A stretch of DNA of 64,000 nucleotides from Dictyostelium discoideum. Lineage: Eukaryota. The position numbers and the translations under genes are program-made. The notes under the pieces were generated by a model. It ran no database searches, was not told where the DNA came from, and saw nothing but the letters and a program-made list of their open reading frames with translations. Positions 1,609-22,297 of the stretch are shown piece after piece. The stretch covers positions 1,024,001-1,088,000 of the forward strand of contig CM000152.2 in the NCBI GenBank assembly GCA_000004695.1, read 5' to 3'. Numbering within the stretch: the stretch's first letter is position 1; the number at the start of each line of letters is the position of its first letter.

Positions 1609-2276
1609 TTAATTAATTTCTTTATTTTGATTACGAATATGATGATCTTTATCAAAACTGATATGAGATAAAAACATTCCCCAAAATATACTAATGATTG
1701 AACTATATAATACACGTAAATTAGGTGGTACTAATGAGAAATTAATTATTTGAGCAGCTGGCCATATAAGCCAATTAATTTTAACAGCATAAAATAATTC
1801 TTTTGTGAAATTCTCTAAATTCTTTAATTCACCTTTATTATTTATGAAATTGGTAACTGTCATAAAACCACCAATTGCAACTGGTGCGAAAAGTAATTGA
1901 TCGATTAACATCTTTTTAATTATAACTGATCTTCCTTCACCTTTGACCATAATATCTAATGATCTATACCAATAATGTAACATTGGTCCAGAATAAAATA
2001 TACCTACTGTTGACATTGTTGCAACTCTTTTATAATCTAATTTAAATTGGCTCTTTTCATCTTTAAATTTATGTTCTAATCTTTGTGCTAATATATCACC
2101 TGTTCCCATTAAAAATCCAGTTGATAATGATTTTGCTAAAATTTAAAAAAAGTGTTTAGTTAATTTTTTTTTTTTTTTTTTTTTTTTTTTTCCCCTTAAA
2201 AAATTAATTAAAAAACCATACTAACTAAAGGATGATTATCCAATAATCCCAAATATAATCCCCAAAGTTTTCTCAT
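1609..2276 (-). CDS. Mpv17/PMP22-family peroxisomal/mitochondrial inner-membrane protein, 2 exons (2222..2276, 1609..2135)
   Basis: ORF 1609..2109 (..LHYWYRSLD..NWLIWPAAQIINFSLVP..) is typical Mpv17/PMP22. Upstream exon is ATG 2276..2274 MRKLWGLYLGLLDNHPLV with donor GTATGG at 2221 and acceptor TTTTAG at 2136; phase 1 is consistent, giving about 193 aa. Confidence 0.65.
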
Positions 2277-2838
2277 TTTTATGTTTAATTTAATAAAAAA
2301 AAAAAAAAAAAAAAAAGATCACGAGTATCAAATTAATTTTGATTTTTTTTTTTTTTTTTTTTTAATTAAAAAAAAAAATAAAAAATGAAAATCAAAAAAA
2401 AAAAAAAAAAGATAAATCAAAACTAAAAAATGAAAAATAAAAAAAAAAATAAAATGTGATAAAACAAAAAAAAAAAAAAAATTTTTAACACAAGATAAAA
2501 TTAGAAATATTTTATTTTTCATTTCTGTTAAAATTCTAAATAATCTTGTGATATATGAAATTATTTAATTTTTTCTTTTTTTTTTTTTATAATTTTAAAT
2601 TAATTGATTAAAAAAAAAGTTAAAAAAAAAAAAAAAATAAAATAAAAATTGAATTTTTTTTGAGTATCACGACTACACCGGGCAATTATTTTTTTCATCA
2701 ATTTTTTTTTTTAGTTTTTTTTTTTTTCAATTTTTTTTATTTTTTTTTCGTCTCAGTCAAAATTTTTTTTTTCTCGCGACTATTATTTTTTTTCTTTTTT
2801 TTTGGTAGTTATAACTCATACACATACATATTTCCACT

Positions 2839-3169
2839 ATGTCTGAAATCAAAACTGAAGGTACATTGGAAAAAAAAAAAAAAAAAAAATAATAAAAAAA
2901 TTATATTTATTTTTTGTATAAACTCTCTTTCAAATAAATAAAAAAATAAACAAACAAACAGAATGAATAAATAAATAAATAATAATAATAATAAAAAAGA
3001 TGATCACAAAAAAAAAAAAAAAAAAAACCGAGAAAATAATAATAATAAAAAAAAAATAAAAAATAACAAAATAACAAAATTTAGAAATGAAACAGTAAAG
3101 AAAATAGAGATAATAATAGGATAAAAACAGTTTATAAATAAATTACAGATTTACAACCAAATCAGATGA

Positions 3170-3206
<37 letters not shown>

Positions 3207-3765
3207 GATTTATGACTAAAAAAAAAAAAAGAGATAGATATTTCAGAGAACAGATAAGAAAAATAACAACTTTATTTGATAAAATTGGACAAAAATGCAA
3301 CAAAACTATCGAATTTTTTTCATCCAAATTTTATTTGTTTTTGATAGGGGGAGAGAGTTTATGCAAAAAATAATAAATATAATATTGCGCACGCTGAAAA
3401 AAAAGATATTAACTTTTTTTTTTTTTTTTTTTTATTATTAATTAGAACTCGCTTGCATCTACTCCGGTCTTTTATTACAAGATGACGGTATTGAAATCAC
3501 CGCTGATAAAATCAAAACCTTATTAGAAGCTGCCAACATCACTGTTGCTTCTCACTGGCCAGGTCTCTATGCTCGTTCATTAGCCAAAGTTAACATTCCA
3601 GAATTATTATTAAATGCTGGTTCCTCAGGTGCCGCCGGTGCTGCCCCAGTTGCCGCTGCCACCAGCGCTGCTGCCCCAGCCGCCGCCGCCAAGAAAGAAA
3701 CTAAAAAGGAAGAAGTTAAAAAGGAAGAATCCGATGACGATATGGGTATGGGTTTATTCGACTAA
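2839..3765 (+). CDS. rplp1: 60S acidic ribosomal protein P1, 2 exons (2839..2860, 3446..3765)
   Basis: Exon 2 translates [80 protein letters not shown], the hallmark P-protein C terminus. Exon 1 is MSEIKTE plus donor GTACAT. The intron is about 585 bp, long for this genome, so the exon-1 assignment is less certain. Confidence 0.65.
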
Positions 3766-4304: not shown

Positions 4305-7300
4305 CTAATTTTTCATTTTTTTTAATTTTAAAGGTTTAATATTTCTAAGGTGATATTTATATTTTTTTGCCAAGAAAATGGAAATTGTAATTAAAATTGC
4401 ACAACCAACACATCCTAAAACAATTCCAATGATGGCACCAGTTGATAATTTATTTTCACTATTTTCTTTACAAATTGAATTTGCTGAATCACTATCTAAA
4501 AGAATACCAAAATCAGGGTCTAATTGAATTAAATTTTTATAATATGGTATTGATATTGCAATTAGAGATTCTGATGAATAGTATGTAGTACTATCATCAT
4601 CATCACTTTGACCATTTAGAATAATATTATTAATAGAATTTAAATTACCATCAACTATTGCTCTTTTAATAAATCTACCATATAAACTATTATCATTGAC
4701 TTTTAATTGTACATAATTTGAATTATCATTAACAGTTTCACCAAAATCTTTAGATGAGCATGAATTATAATCAATTTCATTTGAAATTGCTTTTGCTTGA
4801 ATAATTAATTGTAATGTATTTAATTGATTTTCAAATGGATATGTTGTAATGTTTATATTATATTTCAATGATGATGGGTTCATTATTAAATTTTGATTTG
4901 CAAATGTAATATTTGTTGTACTATTAAACCATTCTGTAATTACAGTTGTTGTACAATTTAGTTTTGTATTATTATTAAAAGAGGTTTCTAAATTTACTAT
5001 ATACTGATATCGATTATCTTTTAATTTTGTTTGAATCCATTTATCAAATTTATAAGTTTTAATTACATTATTTTTAAAATCTAATTCTCTTAATGATACA
5101 ATTGAAACTAGTGCAGTGAATGATAAATTATCGTCACTTCCATTTGAAGGTTTGGTTATATTTATTGATGGTTTAGTTTCATTTAATTTTGGTGGTGGTA
5201 CAATTACAACCTTTGATTGACATGATAAGCCAACCCATGGTGAATAACAAATACAACCAGTTGATGAGCAATAACCTTGTTTTGAACCACCACATTGGGG
5301 ATTACCTTTACATACTTGAGGACTATTTGTTGGAAGTGGAGTTTGAGTTTCCACTGGTGGTGGTGGTATGAATAAAATTGGGTTAATTAAATATTCATTT
5401 GATATAACACCTTCATATGAAATGATTTTAATAATAAATGGATATTCAGTTTCTTTAATTGCTATTGTAAATGCTCTTGAATATGTTGAAATTGAATCAA
5501 TTGCCTCGAATATATTACTATTAAATCCACCATTTAAATAATTTATATAAACTGTTTGATTTTGGTTAAAACCAATTCCATATAACCAAATTTTACCACC
5601 ATATGAATATACATCATCATGTGAAGTAATGATTGGATTATTTAATGAAAATGTTGTATTTAAATAGTGTTTATTATTTCCTACCAATAATAAATCAGAT
5701 GTTGGATAACCAGCAAAGTAACCATTTTTATATCGTAAACCATAAATTGAAATAAATATTGGACCAGGGTACCCAAAACCAATAGGAATTTCAGTTTCAC
5801 ATATATATCTAATACCACCTGCTATTATTTGATAAGTTGGTGCATCACATTCAATTAAATCTAATGTTGGACTTGTTAAATAAAAAATTGGAGTTAAATT
5901 ATAGTTGAAATTATTTTCATCTGTTAAATTAAATGTAGCACTTATTGTCACTGATCTATCTGTTAATTTACCAACATCAATAGTTTGAGTTGAAAGTTTT
6001 AAATCTATTATCACTGGTTTACCAGTTACTGTTGGATAACTTGAAGAACATGTAATTGGTAAACGTGTAACATTAATACCATCATTGTAAAAATTAATAA
6101 ATGGATTTGAAATTGATTTTTGGTTCTCTGAATAGATATTATAAATTGATGGTATTTTATTGGCATCTAATAAAGTAACATGGATAATTACAAATTCTTG
6201 TGAAATACATGTTTCATCAACTGGAATATCAATTTTATAAGTACCATTCCATTTATCACCATATAGTAAATCATTTAATGTTAAATTAAAATTATAAATT
6301 GAATTATCATTTGAACCCATTACTTTAATAAACCCACTTTCAAATCCATTATAATCATCTAAAATTCTAAATGTCCAACCAACAAAATCAGACCCACTTA
6401 TATTATCAATATTATTTTTTTTTATAATTAAACTTATTAACGGACCTTGATTATCTAAATATGTTTCATTTACTCTAAGTTGTGCTGAACTTGATAATAA
6501 ACTATTATAAATCTTTCCGGTTAATGAAAAAAATATAACATATGGTATTTCACCAAAAATATTATTTGATGGTATTATAAATTTGCATTCAAATGATTCA
6601 ATATCATCATTATAATTAATTGGATATCTAATATTTTCATTAATTGAAATTGAAACTGGATCTAATAACATTAATGACATTGGTACATCTCTTTTTAATG
6701 TATTTGATTTAATATACATAATATTATACCCAGTATTATTTAAAAGATTTAAATCATTAATTGAAAATGAAATATCATTAAAATCATTTAAATTAAATTC
6801 TATATATAAAAAAAAAAAAAAAAAAAAAAATTTTAATTTAATAAAGATTTTTTTTTTTTTTTTTTTTTTTTAAAAAATTAAATTAATAAATTAAAAATAA
6901 TACAAACTATATGAAATAAATGGTGAAGTAAATTTTGAAATTGGATTTAATGAAATAATATCAAAATTATTATATTCAACTTTGTTTCTAACTCTATCAA
7001 TTAATTGAATTTTATTAAGTGATCTGGTTGATAAAATTATTTCATAATCACCTTCAAAAAGATTACCACTTACAAATGATTCTAATCCAATTTTTTCGGT
7101 TGAACCAGAGTTTGTAAATGAATTTATTTGAAATAATTCATTTATTGAAACAATGTGAAGTTTTAATAAATACTTTAATGGTGATAATTGTAAAATTGTA
7201 AAATTTGTTAACTTTGGAGGAGTGGTATCACCTTTTTATTTTTTATTTTATTTTTATGATTAGTAAATTTTAGTATTTTTTTTTTTTTTTTTTTCAACAT

Positions 7301-12083: not shown

Positions 12084-13737
12084 TGTGAAAAAAAAAAAAA
12101 ACCCAAAAAATAATAATAATAATAATTAGGCAGGAGCAGAAGTAAATGTATTAAATTCAAGAGGTGAAAGTCCACTTCATTTTGCAGTTCGTCTTGGTAG
12201 AGAAGATTTAGTATCAGTTTTAGTTAAAGCAGGAGCAGATATTACAATTAAAGGAAATGAAAAGAAAACATGTTATGAGTTATCTTTAACGATTGGGAAT
12301 CAAAGAGTTATAAATTTTTTAAAGAATGTTCAAGATATTTTCAATTGGTTGAAATCAATAGATTTGGAACAATATTGGTTAAATTTTGTAAAGGAAGAGA
12401 TATTTATGGACTTACTATTGGATATTGATGAAAGAACATTGGATTCATTAGGTATCACCTATAGTGGTCATCGTTTAAAAATAATTAGAAATTGTAGAAT
12501 ATTAAGAGATCAACAACTATTGAGTACTGCCAATAGTAATGTTACCACAGGTAGTGGTAGTAGTGGTTCAACAACAACAACCACCACCACTACCACCACC
12601 ACCTCTGGTTGTGGTGGATTAAATGTACCAGAGAATAAAAAGGTAACACAATTATCAATCGAATCATTAAAATCAAATCCACCAAATAGTATGGATTCAA
12701 CTGGTAGTATTAGTTCAGATGATTTGAAAGAGTCATTGACAAATCTTGAACATTGGGTTATTGATCACTCAGAGTTGGAGTATACATTAAAATTGGGTAG
12801 TGGTAGTTCAGGTAAGGTTTATAAAGGTTTATATAAGGGTAAGGAAGTGGCAGTCAAAGTATTGAAATCAATCACCACTCAATCACAATTGGAGGAATTT
12901 AAAAAGGAATTTCAAATTATGGGTTCAATTCGTTCTCAATTTATGGTAACATTTTATGGTGCATGCATTGAACCAAAACTTTGTATGGTCATGGAGTATT
13001 GTAGTCGTGACTCATTGTATCATGTAATGAACACCAAAAAGTATGACATTGGTTGGGACAGATTCTTTCAATTCACCATGCAAATGACATTGGGTGTACA
13101 GTGTCTTCACAATTGGACACCTCAAATTGTACACAGAGACTTTAAGAGTTTAAATCTTTTGGTCAATGAAGATTGGGAATGCAAAGTTTCAGATTTTGGT
13201 CTTAGTCGTTTTAATACCGCCGATAATTTAGAAACACTCAGTAAGATTCGTGGTACCTTTGCCTATTGTTCACCTGAAGTCGCCGTAGGTAATGGTAGTC
13301 TCTACACTACCAAATCTGATATCTACAGTATTGGTATCGTCTTTTGGGAATTAGTAACTCGTGTTATCAATGGTGAATACTCTCGTCCCTACAGTGAATA
13401 TTCTCACATCAAAATGGACTTTCAAATCATGTTAAACTCAAAGGAAGGTTTAAGACCAACCTTACCTCAAAATACTCCACCTGGTCTTGAAGCACTCTAC
13501 AAACAATGTGTAAACCAAGAACAAACCTTAAGACCAAGTTGCGAAGAAATCATTGAAACTTTAAATCGATTGAGACATGAATATATGTCTTCAAAAACTA
13601 CTTGGGATTCTTTAATTAGAAAACTACCATCTTTATCACCACCACCTCAACCAACTACTACAACAACAACTACTACTTCTTCTTCCACTTCAACAAATAA
13701 TATAAATAATAACATAAATAATAACAATAATACTTAA
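10770..13737 (+). CDS. Ankyrin-repeat, SAM-domain, TKL-type protein kinase, 3 exons (10770..11395, 11546..11858, 12130..13737)
   Basis: The S/T/N-rich N terminus is followed by ANK repeats (DQTPLCAALRNGSHDIV, GYTPLHVAASHCDDQILMLLL, GETPLHKSIFNNTVRLLMVNMLLDAGAEVN, GESPLHFAVRLGREDLVSVLVKAGAD). Next come a SAM domain (LEQYWLNFVKEEIFMDLLLDIDERTLDSLGITYSGHRLKII) and a kinase domain (GSGSSGKVYKG..VAVK..HRDFKSLNLL..DFG). Donors are GTAAGT at 11396 and GTATGT at 11859; acceptors TTTAG at 11545 and AATTAG at 12129. About 848 aa. Confidence 0.7.
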
Positions 13738-14087
13738 TGTATTTATATGTCTAATAATAATAATAATAAATAATAAATAATAAAATATACTTTAAAAAAA
13801 ACAAATAAAAAAAAAATAAAAAATAAAAAAAAAATAAAAAAAAATAAAAAAAAGATAAATAAAACAAATAAATAAAGTTAATAATAAATAAAAAAAAAAT
13901 AAAAAAAAAATAAATAAAAAAAAAACATTTAAAAATAAATAATTTGTCTTTTTTTATGATTTATAGAAAGAATTTAATAGTTTTCCTAATTCCAACTTTT
14001 TTTTTTTTTTTCTAATATTAAAGTAATTAAATATTAATTAAAAATAAATTAATAATATAAATAATTATTTATTTATTTTTTTATTAA

Positions 14088-14630
14088 TTAATAAACTATT
14101 TTAAGGATTGGGAGGTTTGGAACAAATGCACCTTCAATAATGAAACCAAATGTATAAGTTGAATGAGCATTAATTGATTGTTGAATTGGTGGTAATGCTA
14201 AAATTCCATTTGGAATACGGACCATGTTCCAAAGAGATGTATCAGAGTTATCACGTAATCTGAATGAGCTGTCAGTACCAATGTTAATTTGTTTGATATT
14301 GTTATTTCCATTATTAACAATTGTAACATCATATTGAGAATAAGTTCTACCACCACGTGATCCATCTTGCCATACACCAATTTGTTTGATAATTAAGTAA
14401 ACTTGATTGGCATTATTTAATTGAACAATTGGTTGACATTGACAAATATCTCCTACCATGTGGCATGTTTCTCCTGATTTACAATTATCATTATATCCAC
14501 ATCTATATGGGTGGTGTGGGTAACGATACAATAATGATTCTGAAATTTCAGATTCTTGAATATTGGCTGATGTCAATGAAATTGATAATAAAATACCTAA
14601 AATTAAAGTTAAAAAAAATATAGTTTTCAT
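14088..14630 (-). CDS. Secreted CBM49-like carbohydrate(cellulose)-binding domain protein with an N-terminal Cys-rich segment, single exon
   Basis: Signal peptide MKTIFFLTLILGILLSISLTSA. The motifs YSQYDVTIVNNGNNNIKQINIG ... LWNMVRIPNGILALPP ... STYTFGFIIEG follow the CBM49 pattern (Y-x-Q-Y-D-V-T-I-x-N ... W-N ... TLP ... FGYI). Confidence 0.65.
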   Translation of the reverse strand: MKTIFFLTLILGILLSISLTSANIQESEISESLLYRYPHHPYRCGYNDNCKSGETCHMVGDICQCQPIVQLNNANQVYLIIKQIGVWQDGSRGGRTYSQYDVTIVNNGNNNIKQINIGTDSSFRLRDNSDTSLWNMVRIPNGILALPPIQQSINAHSTYTFGFIIEGAFVPNLPILKIVY

Positions 14631-19258: not shown

Positions 19259-20326
19259 ATGAAAGATAGCGCAATATTAAATCAATTAAAAGTTGTTTTA
19301 CCACCACATATAATGGAAATAATATACTTTAGATATAATCAAATTGATACATATTTAAAACCATATAATTTACCAATTAAAACAGATGTTTTACTATTGG
19401 CTTTATTTACATTAATTTTTATCATTATAATTTCAAAGTGTAATTATAAATTATATATATATATATATAAATCATTTTCAACCTTTTTATTTAATTTTTT
19501 TTTTCATTTTTATTAATTAAAAATCCTATTATACATTTATATTTTTAATAAAAAATACTAGTATTTGGAAGTAGTGGTAATAAAACTAGAAGTGTTGGAG
19601 GTAGAACAAGTAATGATAAAAAAGTTAAGAGAGGAGTTAATATAGCTATATTAGGACTTTCAAATGCAGGTAAAACAGCATTACTTTTAAATTTAACAAA
19701 TGTTGATAAGAAAATTTCAACACACACAAGTATAACAACAAACAATGGTGTATATATCACTGAAAATAAAAAGAAATTACCAATTATCGATGTACCAGGT
19801 AATGGAAAGGCAAAAGCATCATTACCAAAAATTCTTTCAAATTCTGCTTGTATTATTTATGTAATTGATGGTACAACTTTTATTGATAACTCAACCCAGG
19901 AAGCTCAGTATGTAGTAATTTATTTTTATTTAATTTTAACTAAATTATTAATTAATTATTTTAATTATTTATTTATTTAGGTATTTATATGATATTTTAA
20001 CAAATGAATCAGTTTATCAAAAGAAGATACCAGTTTTAGTATTTAATAATAAAATGGATTTAGATTCAACAATTGATACAGAACAAGTTAAAAATATTTT
20101 AGAGAGAGAATTGGATGATTTAAGAAGAACTCGTGGTGCAACACCAATAGTTTTAGGTCAAGAGGAGGATAAAAAAGATATTTATTTGGGTATTGAAGGT
20201 ACACCATTCCAATTTGATCACCTCCCAAATGACGTTCAATTCTCTAATGGTTCCGCTTCACCTTCAAATGGTGAATTAAAAGAGATTGATGATATTAAAA
20301 ATTTCATTCAAACTACAACTCTTTAA
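19259..20326 (+). CDS. Signal recognition particle receptor beta subunit (SR-beta, Arf-like GTPase with N-terminal TM anchor), 3 exons (19259..19439, 19562..19907, 19981..20326)
   Basis: N-terminal TM LALFTLIFIIIIS, G1 motif ILGLSNAGKTALL, DVPG, and NKMD. Donors are GTAATT at 19440 and GTATGT at 19908; acceptors CTAG at 19561 and TTTAG at 19980, with phases consistent. About 290 aa. Confidence 0.7.
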
Positions 20327-20639
20327 TAACCTTTTGGAAAAAAAAAAAAAAAAAAAAAAAATAATAAAAATAAAAATAAAAATAGATTTTTTTTATTACA
20401 TTTTAAATTAGATTCTTCATATTGGCCAATAAATTCATTTTCATTTTCAGTTAGATTATTAAATATTAGATGACACAATTTTATTTGAATTGAAAATTCA
20501 GTTTGTAAATCATTGTGAATCAAATTAATCCAAATGATTTTGTTTTTTTCACTTAATTTAACACACCACCAATAATCTATTTAATATCATTTTTTTTCAA
20601 TTTTTAATGTTGGTAATTTACATTTAAATGATAATGGTA

Positions 20640-21200
20640 ATGGTGATGCAATTTTAATTTATTAAGGTACATGAGAGTGGGTTTATCATCATTAAATATT
20701 TTAAAATTGAAAGATATTAAATCATATATTTTCCCTACAGTTGGAGTCCAAAAGAGAAAGAGGAATATCTTATGAAAATACATATGGTAATTTTATCACC
20801 AGAATTTAATTAAGTAGAAATAGAATTTTTTTTTAAGAAATTGAATTGAGGTTAGCAGAATTGCATTTCAATCAAAAAGGGAGCAGATTTAAAAAAATAC
20901 ATTACTGTTTGACTTAATGGATTATAATATTATAAATGTATAGAAAAATGTCGTAGAATTTAAGATCAAGTGATTGTAAATTTTAATGAATACTCTCATT
21001 TTAAATATAACTGTGGTTACTTTAATGTTATACTATTTTCAATAAAAAAACGAAAACTATCTCAAAGTATCTCTGAGTTAACAAAAGGTATTTGGTGAAC
21101 CAATAATTTTCTAATAATCGAACTATCCAAACTTAATATTGGCTTTGAGATGACTTTAAAGCTTAATCAAAAAAAGATTTTATGTAATAAAAAAATTAAA
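20640..21200. mobile_element. Complex (non-AT-biased) non-coding island ending about 40-50 bp upstream of the tRNA-Asn gene; candidate remnant of a tRNA-gene-targeted retroelement (TRE5-type position)
   Basis: Composition is clearly different from the surrounding poly(A/T) intergenic DNA, with no ORF of 60 aa or more. It sits at the canonical distance upstream of a tRNA gene where TRE5 elements integrate in this genome. The sequence itself is not recognised from memory. Confidence 0.25.
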
Positions 21201-21239
21201 AAACGGTTTGGAGCAAAAAAACGAAATTTCATCAAAAAT

Positions 21240-21312
21240 GCCTGGATGGCTCAGTAGGCAGAGCGAGCGGCTGTTAACCGCTAGGTCCATGGTTCGATCC
21301 CATGTCTAGGCG
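21240..21312 (+). tRNA. tRNA-Asn (anticodon GTT)
   Basis: 73-nt cloverleaf. Acceptor stem GCCTGGA/TCTAGGC (one G-U pair), D stem GCTC/GAGC with an 8-nt loop, anticodon stem AGCGG/CCGCT, loop CTGTTAA (anticodon GTT at positions 34-36). T arm CATGG-TTCGATC-CCATG carries the B-box consensus GGTTCGATCC. Discriminator G, no intron. Confidence 0.85.
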
Positions 21313-21334
21313 ATAATTTTTCAATCACCAAAAT

Positions 21335-21360
21335 CTAGGCCAATGGTTCGAATCTCTTTT
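21335..21360 (+). promoter_or_regulatory. External B box (ex-B box, extra Pol III TFIIIC-binding element) downstream of tRNA-Asn
   Basis: CTAGGCCAATGGTTCGAATCTC lies about 25-45 bp 3' of the tRNA and duplicates the T-arm/B-box GGTTCGAATC. Ex-B boxes downstream of tRNA genes are a known feature of this genome. Confidence 0.55.
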
Positions 21361-21995
21361 AAATATTTTTTTCACTTATTGAGGGGTTATACGAGCACTA
21401 TAAACATGTTAAATGACCCATACCACAATTTATTTTTCTACCAAGACAAAATCTTTAAACACTACCAAACTTAAAGAATTCATCTTCAAATCAGCTAGTT
21501 ACAAGAAAGAACAGCTATAAATAATAAAACAAAATATTATAAAACAATTAACCCTCCAATATGAAAAAAGATCACCTATTAAACATACAATACAAGTAAA
21601 ATTCCCCAATGGTGTTATAGGCAATAAACTAAGACCTCACAATACCATTTAGTACAGAAATATATCGCTCTAATATTACACCAAGTATGGATATGGATTT
21701 GTAATAAAATCTACATTGATGATAAAATTCCAAAGAAACATTAGATTATGATAATATTCTCAAGAAATGGCATAAATTTACAACTTTGAATTGCATTAAC
21801 TATCATCAATTAAAAACTCACTCTTAATTTGTAATATAACTAATTAATACAAAAAAAAAAATTTAAGATATTAAAATTTACATTACCAAAGATTACTGTA
21901 TAACAAGATCGGCCTCACCAAATAGAATAATTGTAGATCAATTATCTAAATCTTTAATACCTTTAAAATAATTCCACAAAATAAAAAAAAAAAAA
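21360..21995. mobile_element. Complex non-coding island downstream of tRNA-Asn ending in an oligo(A) tract; candidate 5'-truncated TRE3-type (tRNA-downstream-targeting) non-LTR retroelement remnant
   Basis: About 640 bp of mixed-composition sequence with no ORF, starting about 50 bp 3' of the tRNA/ex-B box and ending in A20 at 21975-21995. Both position and 3' oligo(A) fit TRE3 integration behaviour. Identity is not confirmed. Confidence 0.3.
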
Positions 21996-22058
21996 AAAAA
22001 AATAATTATTAAAATCTCAACAAACATTTATTATTGACAAATCCTTTTAGGTTGGGAG

Positions 22059-22095
<37 letters not shown>

Positions 22096-22297
22096 ACACT
22101 ACTTTATTATTTCTGGATTTGTGTGAATAATAAATAGCCATTTTAAAAAAGTTACAAAATTAATTATTTTAAAAAAAAAAAAATCTGTAATACTATTTGT
22201 ACAATTTTATAAATTTTTTATTTTTTATTATTATTATGTGAATAATTTTTTTTTTAAATTCTAAATATTATTTACTTTTTTTTTTTTATTATTATTA

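Follow-up and report, generated by a model that had tools for sequence, protein, structure and literature searches.

The question raised by this locus is whether the two blocks of non-coding DNA that flank a tRNA-Asn gene in a 64,000-nucleotide stretch of the Dictyostelium discoideum genome (GenBank assembly GCA_000004695.1, contig CM000152.2, positions 1,024,001 to 1,088,000; hereafter, the window, to whose first letter coordinates refer unless a locus is named) are both relics of TRE retrotransposons. The seven related TREs are the only non-LTR (long terminal repeat) retrotransposons of D. discoideum, and at least one TRE is found at 61% of the tRNA genes (PMC5391098). Relative to a tRNA gene, TRE3 elements are found 40-150 bp downstream and share its orientation; TRE5 elements are found 44-54 bp upstream and face the opposite way (PMC5911963). 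A preliminary description of the window, made from the sequence alone, had placed the tRNA gene in this framework and pointed to TREs on both of its sides. As argued below, only the downstream block appears to be a TRE: the segment 21374-22002 is, very probably, a 5'-truncated remnant of a TRE3-clade element beside an ordinary tRNA-Asn gene with an external (ex-)B box, whereas the upstream 480 bp are an insertion in the AX4 lineage and not a TRE5. The features on which the argument turns are the following.

21239..21313, plus strand: intact tRNA-Asn gene (anticodon GTT)
21291-21300, plus strand: internal B box, GGTTCGATCC, matching the pattern GGTTCGAWYC
21335..21354, plus strand: 17-nt partial copy of the T-arm region, together with the ex-B box that it holds
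21345-21354, plus strand: ex-B box, GGTTCGAATC, matching the same pattern
21374..21982, plus strand: body of the decayed, 5'-truncated TRE3-clade non-LTR retrotransposon, recognized by blastn, tblastx, tblastn and residue motifs
21983..22002, plus strand: poly(A) tail (A20) of this remnant
20658..21137, no strand: AX4-lineage-specific insertion of 480 bp, recognized by its presence and absence across genomes

The source of the window is D. discoideum of the AX4 type, given that the open reading frame (ORF) at 14088-14630 on the minus strand matches DDB_G0278537 exactly. The spacer under study spans 1.97 kb, from the stop codon of the SRP-receptor-beta gene at 20326 (plus strand) to that of a large CH-domain gene at about 22298 (minus strand). 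We compared it with the orthologous spacers from eight related assemblies, that is, nine genomes including the window. One of these, L001, is another D. discoideum assembly (99.7% identity across the region); L015 and L016 are two divergent D. discoideum strains; L006 is one 'D. cf. discoideum' lineage; L002, L004 and L005 together represent D. firmibasis, D. citrinum and a second 'D. cf. discoideum' lineage; and L003 is D. dimigraforme.

The identity of the downstream block emerged from a local reference set. The seed was a TRE5-type ORF2 fragment at the orthologous tRNA gene of L006; the protein search and the exhaustive representative search that started from it yielded about 160 ORF2-type proteins. 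When these proteins were compared with the spacer using tblastn, the only matches came from the C-termini of three proteins that are distant from TRE5 (P0035, P0036 and P0038), all on the plus strand and all in the downstream block or its L006 orthologue; TRE5-type proteins gave no match to this block. Through P0173, a D. discoideum relative of P0035, we reached a reference element at locus L008. At the nucleotide level, window 21489-22011 aligns with positions 13601-14155 of that locus, which end in poly(A), at 66% identity over 570 bp (blastn, E 2e-32). In tblastx, five colinear high-scoring segment pairs were obtained, with E 1.8e-22 against L008 and 6e-12 against the abundant TRE3 family described below. 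With two ORF2 C-terminal peptides as queries, tblastn reached 51.2 bits, compared with 16.8 +/- 2.2 bits (maximum 23.1) in 200 dinucleotide shuffles. The similarity can be followed residue by residue across three frames, in the segments below.

NDPYHNLFF in the window, DPYGHLFF in TRE3 ORF2
TKTKSLNTTKLKEFIFK in the window, TKTKSFINTTKLMGFIYK in TRE3 ORF2
PSNMKKDH in the window, PTNMKKDH in TRE3 ORF2
YRNISL..ILHQVWIWICNKIY in the window, YKNLIALILHQVWIWICNQLY in TRE3 ORF2
LDYDNILKKWHKFTTL in the window, LDYDTILKKWYKAATL in TRE3 ORF2
YCITRSASPNRIIVDQ in the window, YCIPESSLPNIISFDQFI* in TRE3 ORF2

Altogether, the block holds the final ~185 ORF2 codons, which begin slightly ahead of the ...NDPYxxLFF zinc-finger motif and reach the C-terminus, and a short 3' untranslated region (UTR), ~630 bp including the tail. 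About 40 nt separate the last ORF2 match from A20, which occupies the same position in the L006, L015 and L016 orthologues; the L008 reference element likewise ends in poly(A). The coding sequence is interrupted by multiple stop codons and frameshifts, and no ORF exceeds 43 aa. The 5' junction falls at about 21357-21401; counted from 21374-21401, it lies 61-88 bp past the end of the tRNA at 21313, inside the published TRE3 window. Every ORF2 match is on the plus strand, like the tRNA, and A20 is at the distal end. Thus, the suggestion that the downstream island is a 5'-truncated non-LTR element ending in A20 is borne out by the ORF2 homology, the orientation, the position and the poly(A), and with a TRE3 remnant at the expected site and the exact match to DDB_G0278537, the organism and the tRNA-targeting framework assumed in the preliminary description hold as well.

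A six-frame search of both islands against 5.8 billion proteins returned nothing at E<=10. For the downstream island, this null result is misleading: the remnant is detectable in a small search space only. Composition had been the initial reason to single out these islands, described as complex on both flanks, and this assessment is confirmed by the GC content. The non-coding segment 20581-22300 has a GC content of 0.234, the top value among the window's 27 non-coding segments that measure 300 bp or more (0.06-0.20 in the others); by block, the values are 0.237 for 20658-21137, 0.253 for 21374-21982 and 0.129 for the spacer at 22003-22297. The boundaries originally given for the region, 20640-21995, agree within about 20 bp with the 20658 and 22002 derived here. 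The downstream 'island' is explained by the composition of the TRE3 remnant, which is rich in A and C, with a GC content of ~0.25. By itself, A20 is no evidence of a retroelement tail because the window contains 79 A or T runs that are 18 nt or longer. When the two islands were compared with the 64-kb window by self-BLAST, only low-complexity matches appeared. A 13-nt direct repeat, TTTTTTTCACTTA (20543 and 21366), that encloses the upstream island and the tRNA was considered as a duplication signal and rejected, given that ~0.7 chance pairs per 2 kb are estimated from the local base composition.

Are the reference elements themselves TRE3? The abundant family encodes a 417-aa ORF1 and a 1059-aa ORF2 with an RVT_1 domain (90% clusters of 37 and 79 members) and, in four of the five loci, starts ~70-105 bp past a called tRNA gene, in the same orientation; at the fifth locus (L012), there is no called tRNA, and a tRNA-like sequence lies ~100 bp upstream of the element. 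The P0036 element starts ~80 bp past a tRNA-Val gene. TRE5-type fragments in the same loci are located upstream of tRNAs, in the opposite orientation. The ORF2 of the L008 element is 58% identical to that of the abundant family over 858 aa, compared with 28-35% to TRE5-type ORF2s; this element is low-copy, its ORF1 cluster having a single member, and a search for an LTR pair within the L008 locus found none. Judging from its abundance, the abundant family is probably TRE3-A.

Several peculiarities were observed in the reference loci. At L008 12730-13499, a TRE3-type ORF2 is broken by a ~770-bp non-coding insert that consists of short repeats and includes a tRNA-like sequence. L012 (~5660-5735) has a near-identical version of this sequence, with no ARAGORN call and with the full-length TRE3 ~100 bp downstream. 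The P0038 protein (D. purpureum DICPUDRAFT_86210) ends in ...NAWMAQ, which is what the start of a tRNA-Asn gene encodes when translated, and the same string is encoded in the window ORF 21150-21257; the P0038 gene model apparently begins in a TRE3-type ORF2 remnant and reads on into a tRNA gene.

The TRE3 remnant is shared, with an identical tail position, by L015 and L016 (78% BLAST identity; 92-96% for the flanking genes) and is also found in L006 (71%); it is absent from the orthologous spacers of L002, L004 and L005. From the sequences compared, the insertion appears to be older than the split of the AX4-type D. discoideum, the L015/L016 strains and the L006 lineage. Because the remnant is less conserved than its flanks (78% vs 95-96%), it apparently has decayed neutrally, free of constraint.

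The tRNA gene beside the remnant is ordinary in most respects. ARAGORN and Rfam (RF00005, 64.3 bits, E 6e-13) agree on a single tRNA gene in the 64 kb; at permissive Rfam thresholds, the tRNA alone was found, the additional 13-20 bit matches (CRISPR repeat, microRNA, snoRNA DdR2) being noise. The pattern GGTTCGAWYC occurs exactly twice in the 64 kb (0.01 expected from shuffles), as the internal B box and as the ex-B box 32 bp past the tRNA end, so that the previously described tRNA-Asn(GUU) with a duplicated downstream B box is confirmed by ARAGORN, Rfam and the pattern search. With a T5 run shortly downstream (21319-21323), the gene has all the sequence-predicted attributes of a functional tRNA gene with an ex-B box: a cloverleaf, an internal B box, a downstream T run and a second B-box consensus in the 3' flank. 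The mature tRNA-Asn (73 nt) has the same sequence as that of another D. discoideum copy (L011 5651-5725). That second tRNA-Asn(GTT) gene has no ex-B box and is followed, ~75 bp downstream, by a full-length TRE3 of the abundant family.

An ex-B box is present at most D. discoideum tRNA genes and is an alternative landmark for TRE3 (PMC5911963). The gene analyzed here differs from other Dictyostelium tRNA genes with an ex-B box in that the box sits within a 17-nt copy of the gene's own T-arm region (21335-21351 vs 21281-21297, 88% identity); the box is kept as GGTTCGATTC in L006, L015 and L016. The 5' junction of the TRE3 remnant is ~85-110 bp from the internal B box vs ~20-50 bp from the ex-B box, and these distances make the internal B box the likelier landmark for this insertion. 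The entire tRNA-Asn unit (the gene, ~40 bp of its 5' flank and the ex-B box; window 21198-21357) is inverted with respect to the two flanking protein genes in L002, L004 and L005; in L006, L015 and L016, its orientation is the same as in the window. The D. dimigraforme locus (L003) contains no tRNA and has a different neighbour gene.

The upstream block had been connected with TRE5, which would be expected about 48 bp upstream of the tRNA. The comparison of genomes does not bear this out. For L015 and L016, the alignment with the window runs to 20657 and resumes at 21138, with GATGCAATTTTAA joined directly to ATTGGCTTT at the empty site; the 480 bp in between are 100% identical in L001 and are missing also from L006, L005, L004 and L002. 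The boundaries of the block were set with L015 and L016, the alignment to a reconstructed L006 empty site being ambiguous in A/T-rich DNA. At its right edge, 21137/21138, the block stops 101 bp short of the tRNA, beyond the 44-54 bp upstream interval of TRE5, and the sequence between block and tRNA, 21138-21238, is ancestral. At the left end, the block reads TTTATTAAGGTACATGAG, with no T run where the distal poly(A) of a TRE5 in its usual orientation would lie. An inverted-repeat search of the block returned neither terminal inverted repeats nor long internal repeats, and neither end carries poly(A) or poly(T); the minus strand lacks the A/C-rich composition of a sense strand; no ORF is longer than 59 aa; and there is no meaningful Rfam match.

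Nor did similarity searches connect the 480-bp block with any element. The ~160 ORF2-type proteins gave no tblastn match, and searches of ~360 kb of Dictyostelium DNA, including transposon-rich loci, detected no similarity and no second copy. This set includes the 3' 1.8 kb of a TRE5-A-like element (the end of ORF2 and the whole 3' UTR), a P0030-type TRE5 3' end and a possible A-module beside a tRNA gene in L014, as well as three TRE3 families, the interior of an LTR element and a DDE transposon; for TRE5, it leaves out the TRE5-B and TRE5-C UTRs and curated consensi. A 23-mer of the block that matches two bacterial metagenome contigs was dismissed as chance: these contigs have 47% GC, the match is inside a protein-coding ORF, and no similarity extends beyond the 23-mer.

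The orthologous tRNA gene is a genuine TRE5 target in related genomes. In L006, a 5'-truncated, TRE5-A-like copy (locus ~1983-3560) is inserted at -45, in the opposite orientation, and is flanked by a 15-bp target-site duplication, AATAAAAAAA(A)CAGT. In L005 (~2500-3250), a shorter 5'-truncated TRE5-A-like copy is located at the same tRNA, also at -45, and D. firmibasis shows a trace. Given the different truncation points, the L006 and L005 copies may be independent insertions. Because the sibling genomes carry real TRE5 copies at this tRNA, a TRE5 insertion in the window would be recognisable.

How do these observations bear on the alternatives? If both islands were TRE remnants, the upstream one would be a TRE5 ~48 bp from the tRNA. 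Such an arrangement has precedent, with TREs at 61% of the D. discoideum tRNA genes and TRE5 and TRE3 able to share one gene (PMC5391098), and the TRE5 copies at -45 of this tRNA in sibling genomes, along with the non-intergenic composition of the upstream block, are in its favour. However, the lineage-specific block ends at -101, next to an ancestral -1 to -101 flank, lacks the distal poly(T) and the A/C-rich minus-strand sense composition, and matches neither the TRE5-A-like 3' 1.8 kb, the P0030-type 3' end and L014 in blastn and tblastx, nor the ~160 ORF2 proteins in tblastn, nor any protein at E<=10 in the six-frame search; we therefore regard this reading as very unlikely. Even less credible, to the point of being almost negligible, is a reading of the downstream island as conserved, unique non-coding DNA, or as a host gene in decay, with a resemblance to TRE3 that comes from chance or from composition. 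The island is indeed common to several lineages, has no intact ORF and matches nothing at E<=10 in the six-frame protein search, but a chance resemblance would hardly produce colinear matches in three frames to the ORF2 C-termini of TRE3 elements from several species, down to the last residues and followed by poly(A), nor a score of 51 bits, where shuffles reach 23 at most, and an E value of 2e-32 at the DNA level, and conserved DNA would not be expected to show 78% identity between lineages where its flanks show 95-96%. Several points weigh against the interpretation of the downstream block as a TRE3 remnant and of the upstream block as an insertion other than a TRE5. The TRE3 label is based on clade membership and geometry in the sampled loci, not on the TRE3-A to -D consensus; the closest sampled element, L008, shares only 66% nucleotide identity; the 5' junction is placed only to ~40 bp; and the sole candidate for a target-site duplication, ATAAAAAAT(A)TTAT in the L015 orthologue, is of low complexity and indistinguishable from chance in A/T-rich flanks. 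For the upstream block, the negative result covers ~360 kb of Dictyostelium DNA and protein space, outside which are the non-coding parts of repeats not in the sampled set (DGLT-A, Skipper and DIRS terminal repeats, and the thug and DDT elements).

If not a TRE5, what is the 480-bp block? It could be a non-coding fragment of a repeat family outside the sampled set, such as a DGLT-A, Skipper or DIRS terminal repeat or a non-autonomous DNA element of the thug or DDT-S type, a tentative possibility that fits the clean presence/absence pattern with sharp junctions, the GC content of 0.237, which is above that of ordinary intergenic DNA, a possible TTAA microhomology at the junctions and the lack of a coding signal, as expected of a non-coding part of a repeat. 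Against such an origin are the failure to find a second copy in the ~360 kb of Dictyostelium DNA, the lack of terminal inverted or long internal repeats, and the distance of -101, outside all published tRNA-targeted windows. It is quite conceivable, if short of an even chance, that the block is not mobile at all and either entered the AX4 lineage as captured or templated DNA when a double-strand break was repaired or else is ancestral DNA that was deleted elsewhere. The uniqueness of the block in the ~360 kb, without transposon hallmarks, the short junction microhomology (TTAA/TAAT), typical of end-joining, and the highly indel-prone character of this intergenic region across the species all are compatible with such events. 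The deletion scenario, however, needs a loss in L015/L016, L006, L005, L004 and L002, which may mean more than one loss, and no donor locus for a captured segment was found in the ~360 kb. A more specific proposal is improbable on present evidence, namely, that an uncatalogued non-autonomous mobile element left a copy of itself here, or that templated repair inserted the block, outside the known tRNA-targeting windows and at a site where the tRNA unit has been inverted between siblings; if true, it would hint that DNA at tRNA genes is also rearranged by mechanisms other than the integration of TRE or DGLT elements.

The preferred interpretation, a TRE3 remnant downstream and an insertion other than a TRE5 upstream, can be set against the known tRNA-associated elements of this genome. 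With TRE3 (TRE3-A to -D, L1-like elements with an APE-RT-zinc finger ORF2), the remnant shares the ORF2 C-terminus, the 3' end, the poly(A) and the tRNA orientation; its 5' end, 61-88 bp past the tRNA, fits the 40-150 bp window, and 5' truncation is typical of target-primed reverse transcription. It differs in retaining only ~630 bp, with stops and frameshifts, and in its 66% identity to L008 and still weaker match to the abundant family. The TRE5 elements (TRE5-A, -B and -C) target the same tRNA in the siblings L006 and L005, whereas nothing in the window matches TRE5. DGLT-A and Skipper-2 are tRNA-associated LTR retrotransposons of the same genome, and their windows, 13-33 bp upstream and 8-23 bp downstream, fit neither block. 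Unlike DGLT-A, the upstream block is located at -101, and it shows no protein-level similarity to this element (nucleotide similarity to the LTR is outside this comparison); the downstream block differs from both DGLT-A and Skipper-2 by its poly(A) tail and its non-LTR ORF2 homology.

The history of the locus was very probably as follows. A TRE3-clade element inserted ~60-90 bp downstream of the tRNA-Asn gene, in the orientation of the tRNA and ~85-110 bp from the internal B box. Published knowledge of this family suggests that it integrated through target-primed reverse transcription, with the RNA polymerase III complex at the tRNA gene acting as the guide. Reverse transcription may have halted early, or the copy may have been truncated later, in either case leaving the ~630 bp of the 3' end, which then would have decayed neutrally into inert DNA. 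The upstream flank consists of ancestral intergenic DNA and the 480-bp insertion acquired, 101 bp from the tRNA, in the AX4 lineage alone. Nothing points to a current function of either block, which suggests that neither has one.

The rest of the spacer is made up of three further segments.

20327..20657, no strand: ancestral intergenic DNA 3' of the SRP-receptor-beta gene, aligning with L015/L016 at 86-96% and partly with L006
21138..21238, plus strand: ancestral 5' flank of the tRNA gene with the empty TRE5 target site, aligning over its whole length with L015/L016 and from ~21194 with L006
22003..22125, no strand: variable spacer from the TRE3 tail to the conserved 3' flank of the CH-domain gene, with A30 at 22063-22092

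The first and the last of these segments have been subject to additional indels. In the 3' flank of the SRP-receptor-beta gene, L006, L015 and L016 contain an extra block of ~140-170 bp just 5' of ATTAGATTCTTCATATTGGCCAAT, which is absent from the window (20407-20436). In the variable spacer, the motif ACAAATCC.TTTA.GTTGGGAGTAT is common to the window, L015 and L016 and is absent in L006; after this motif, L015 and L016 run on for ~456 bp that are missing from the window. The segment 22036-22093 was considered as a micro-insertion with a target-site duplication, and this was rejected: because L015 and L016 carry the same 25-nt motif and ~400 bp more, the segment is an indel remnant, not a fresh mini-insertion.

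The combination of a tRNA gene and a truncated TRE is already known, a textbook arrangement that is common in D. discoideum, where tRNA genes accompanied by 5'-truncated TRE remnants are the rule. At this locus, an island of unusual composition that ends in poly(A) beside a tRNA gene was read rightly as a TRE3 relic, although it is too decayed for large protein searches to recognise. The upstream island, which also lies beside the tRNA and is not a TRE, implies that adjacency to a tRNA gene is insufficient evidence for a TRE. Beyond the individual blocks, the comparison of the nine genomes reveals fast turnover of the intergenic DNA around this gene, with TRE5 insertions that may be independent, the inverted tRNA unit and the 480-bp insertion.

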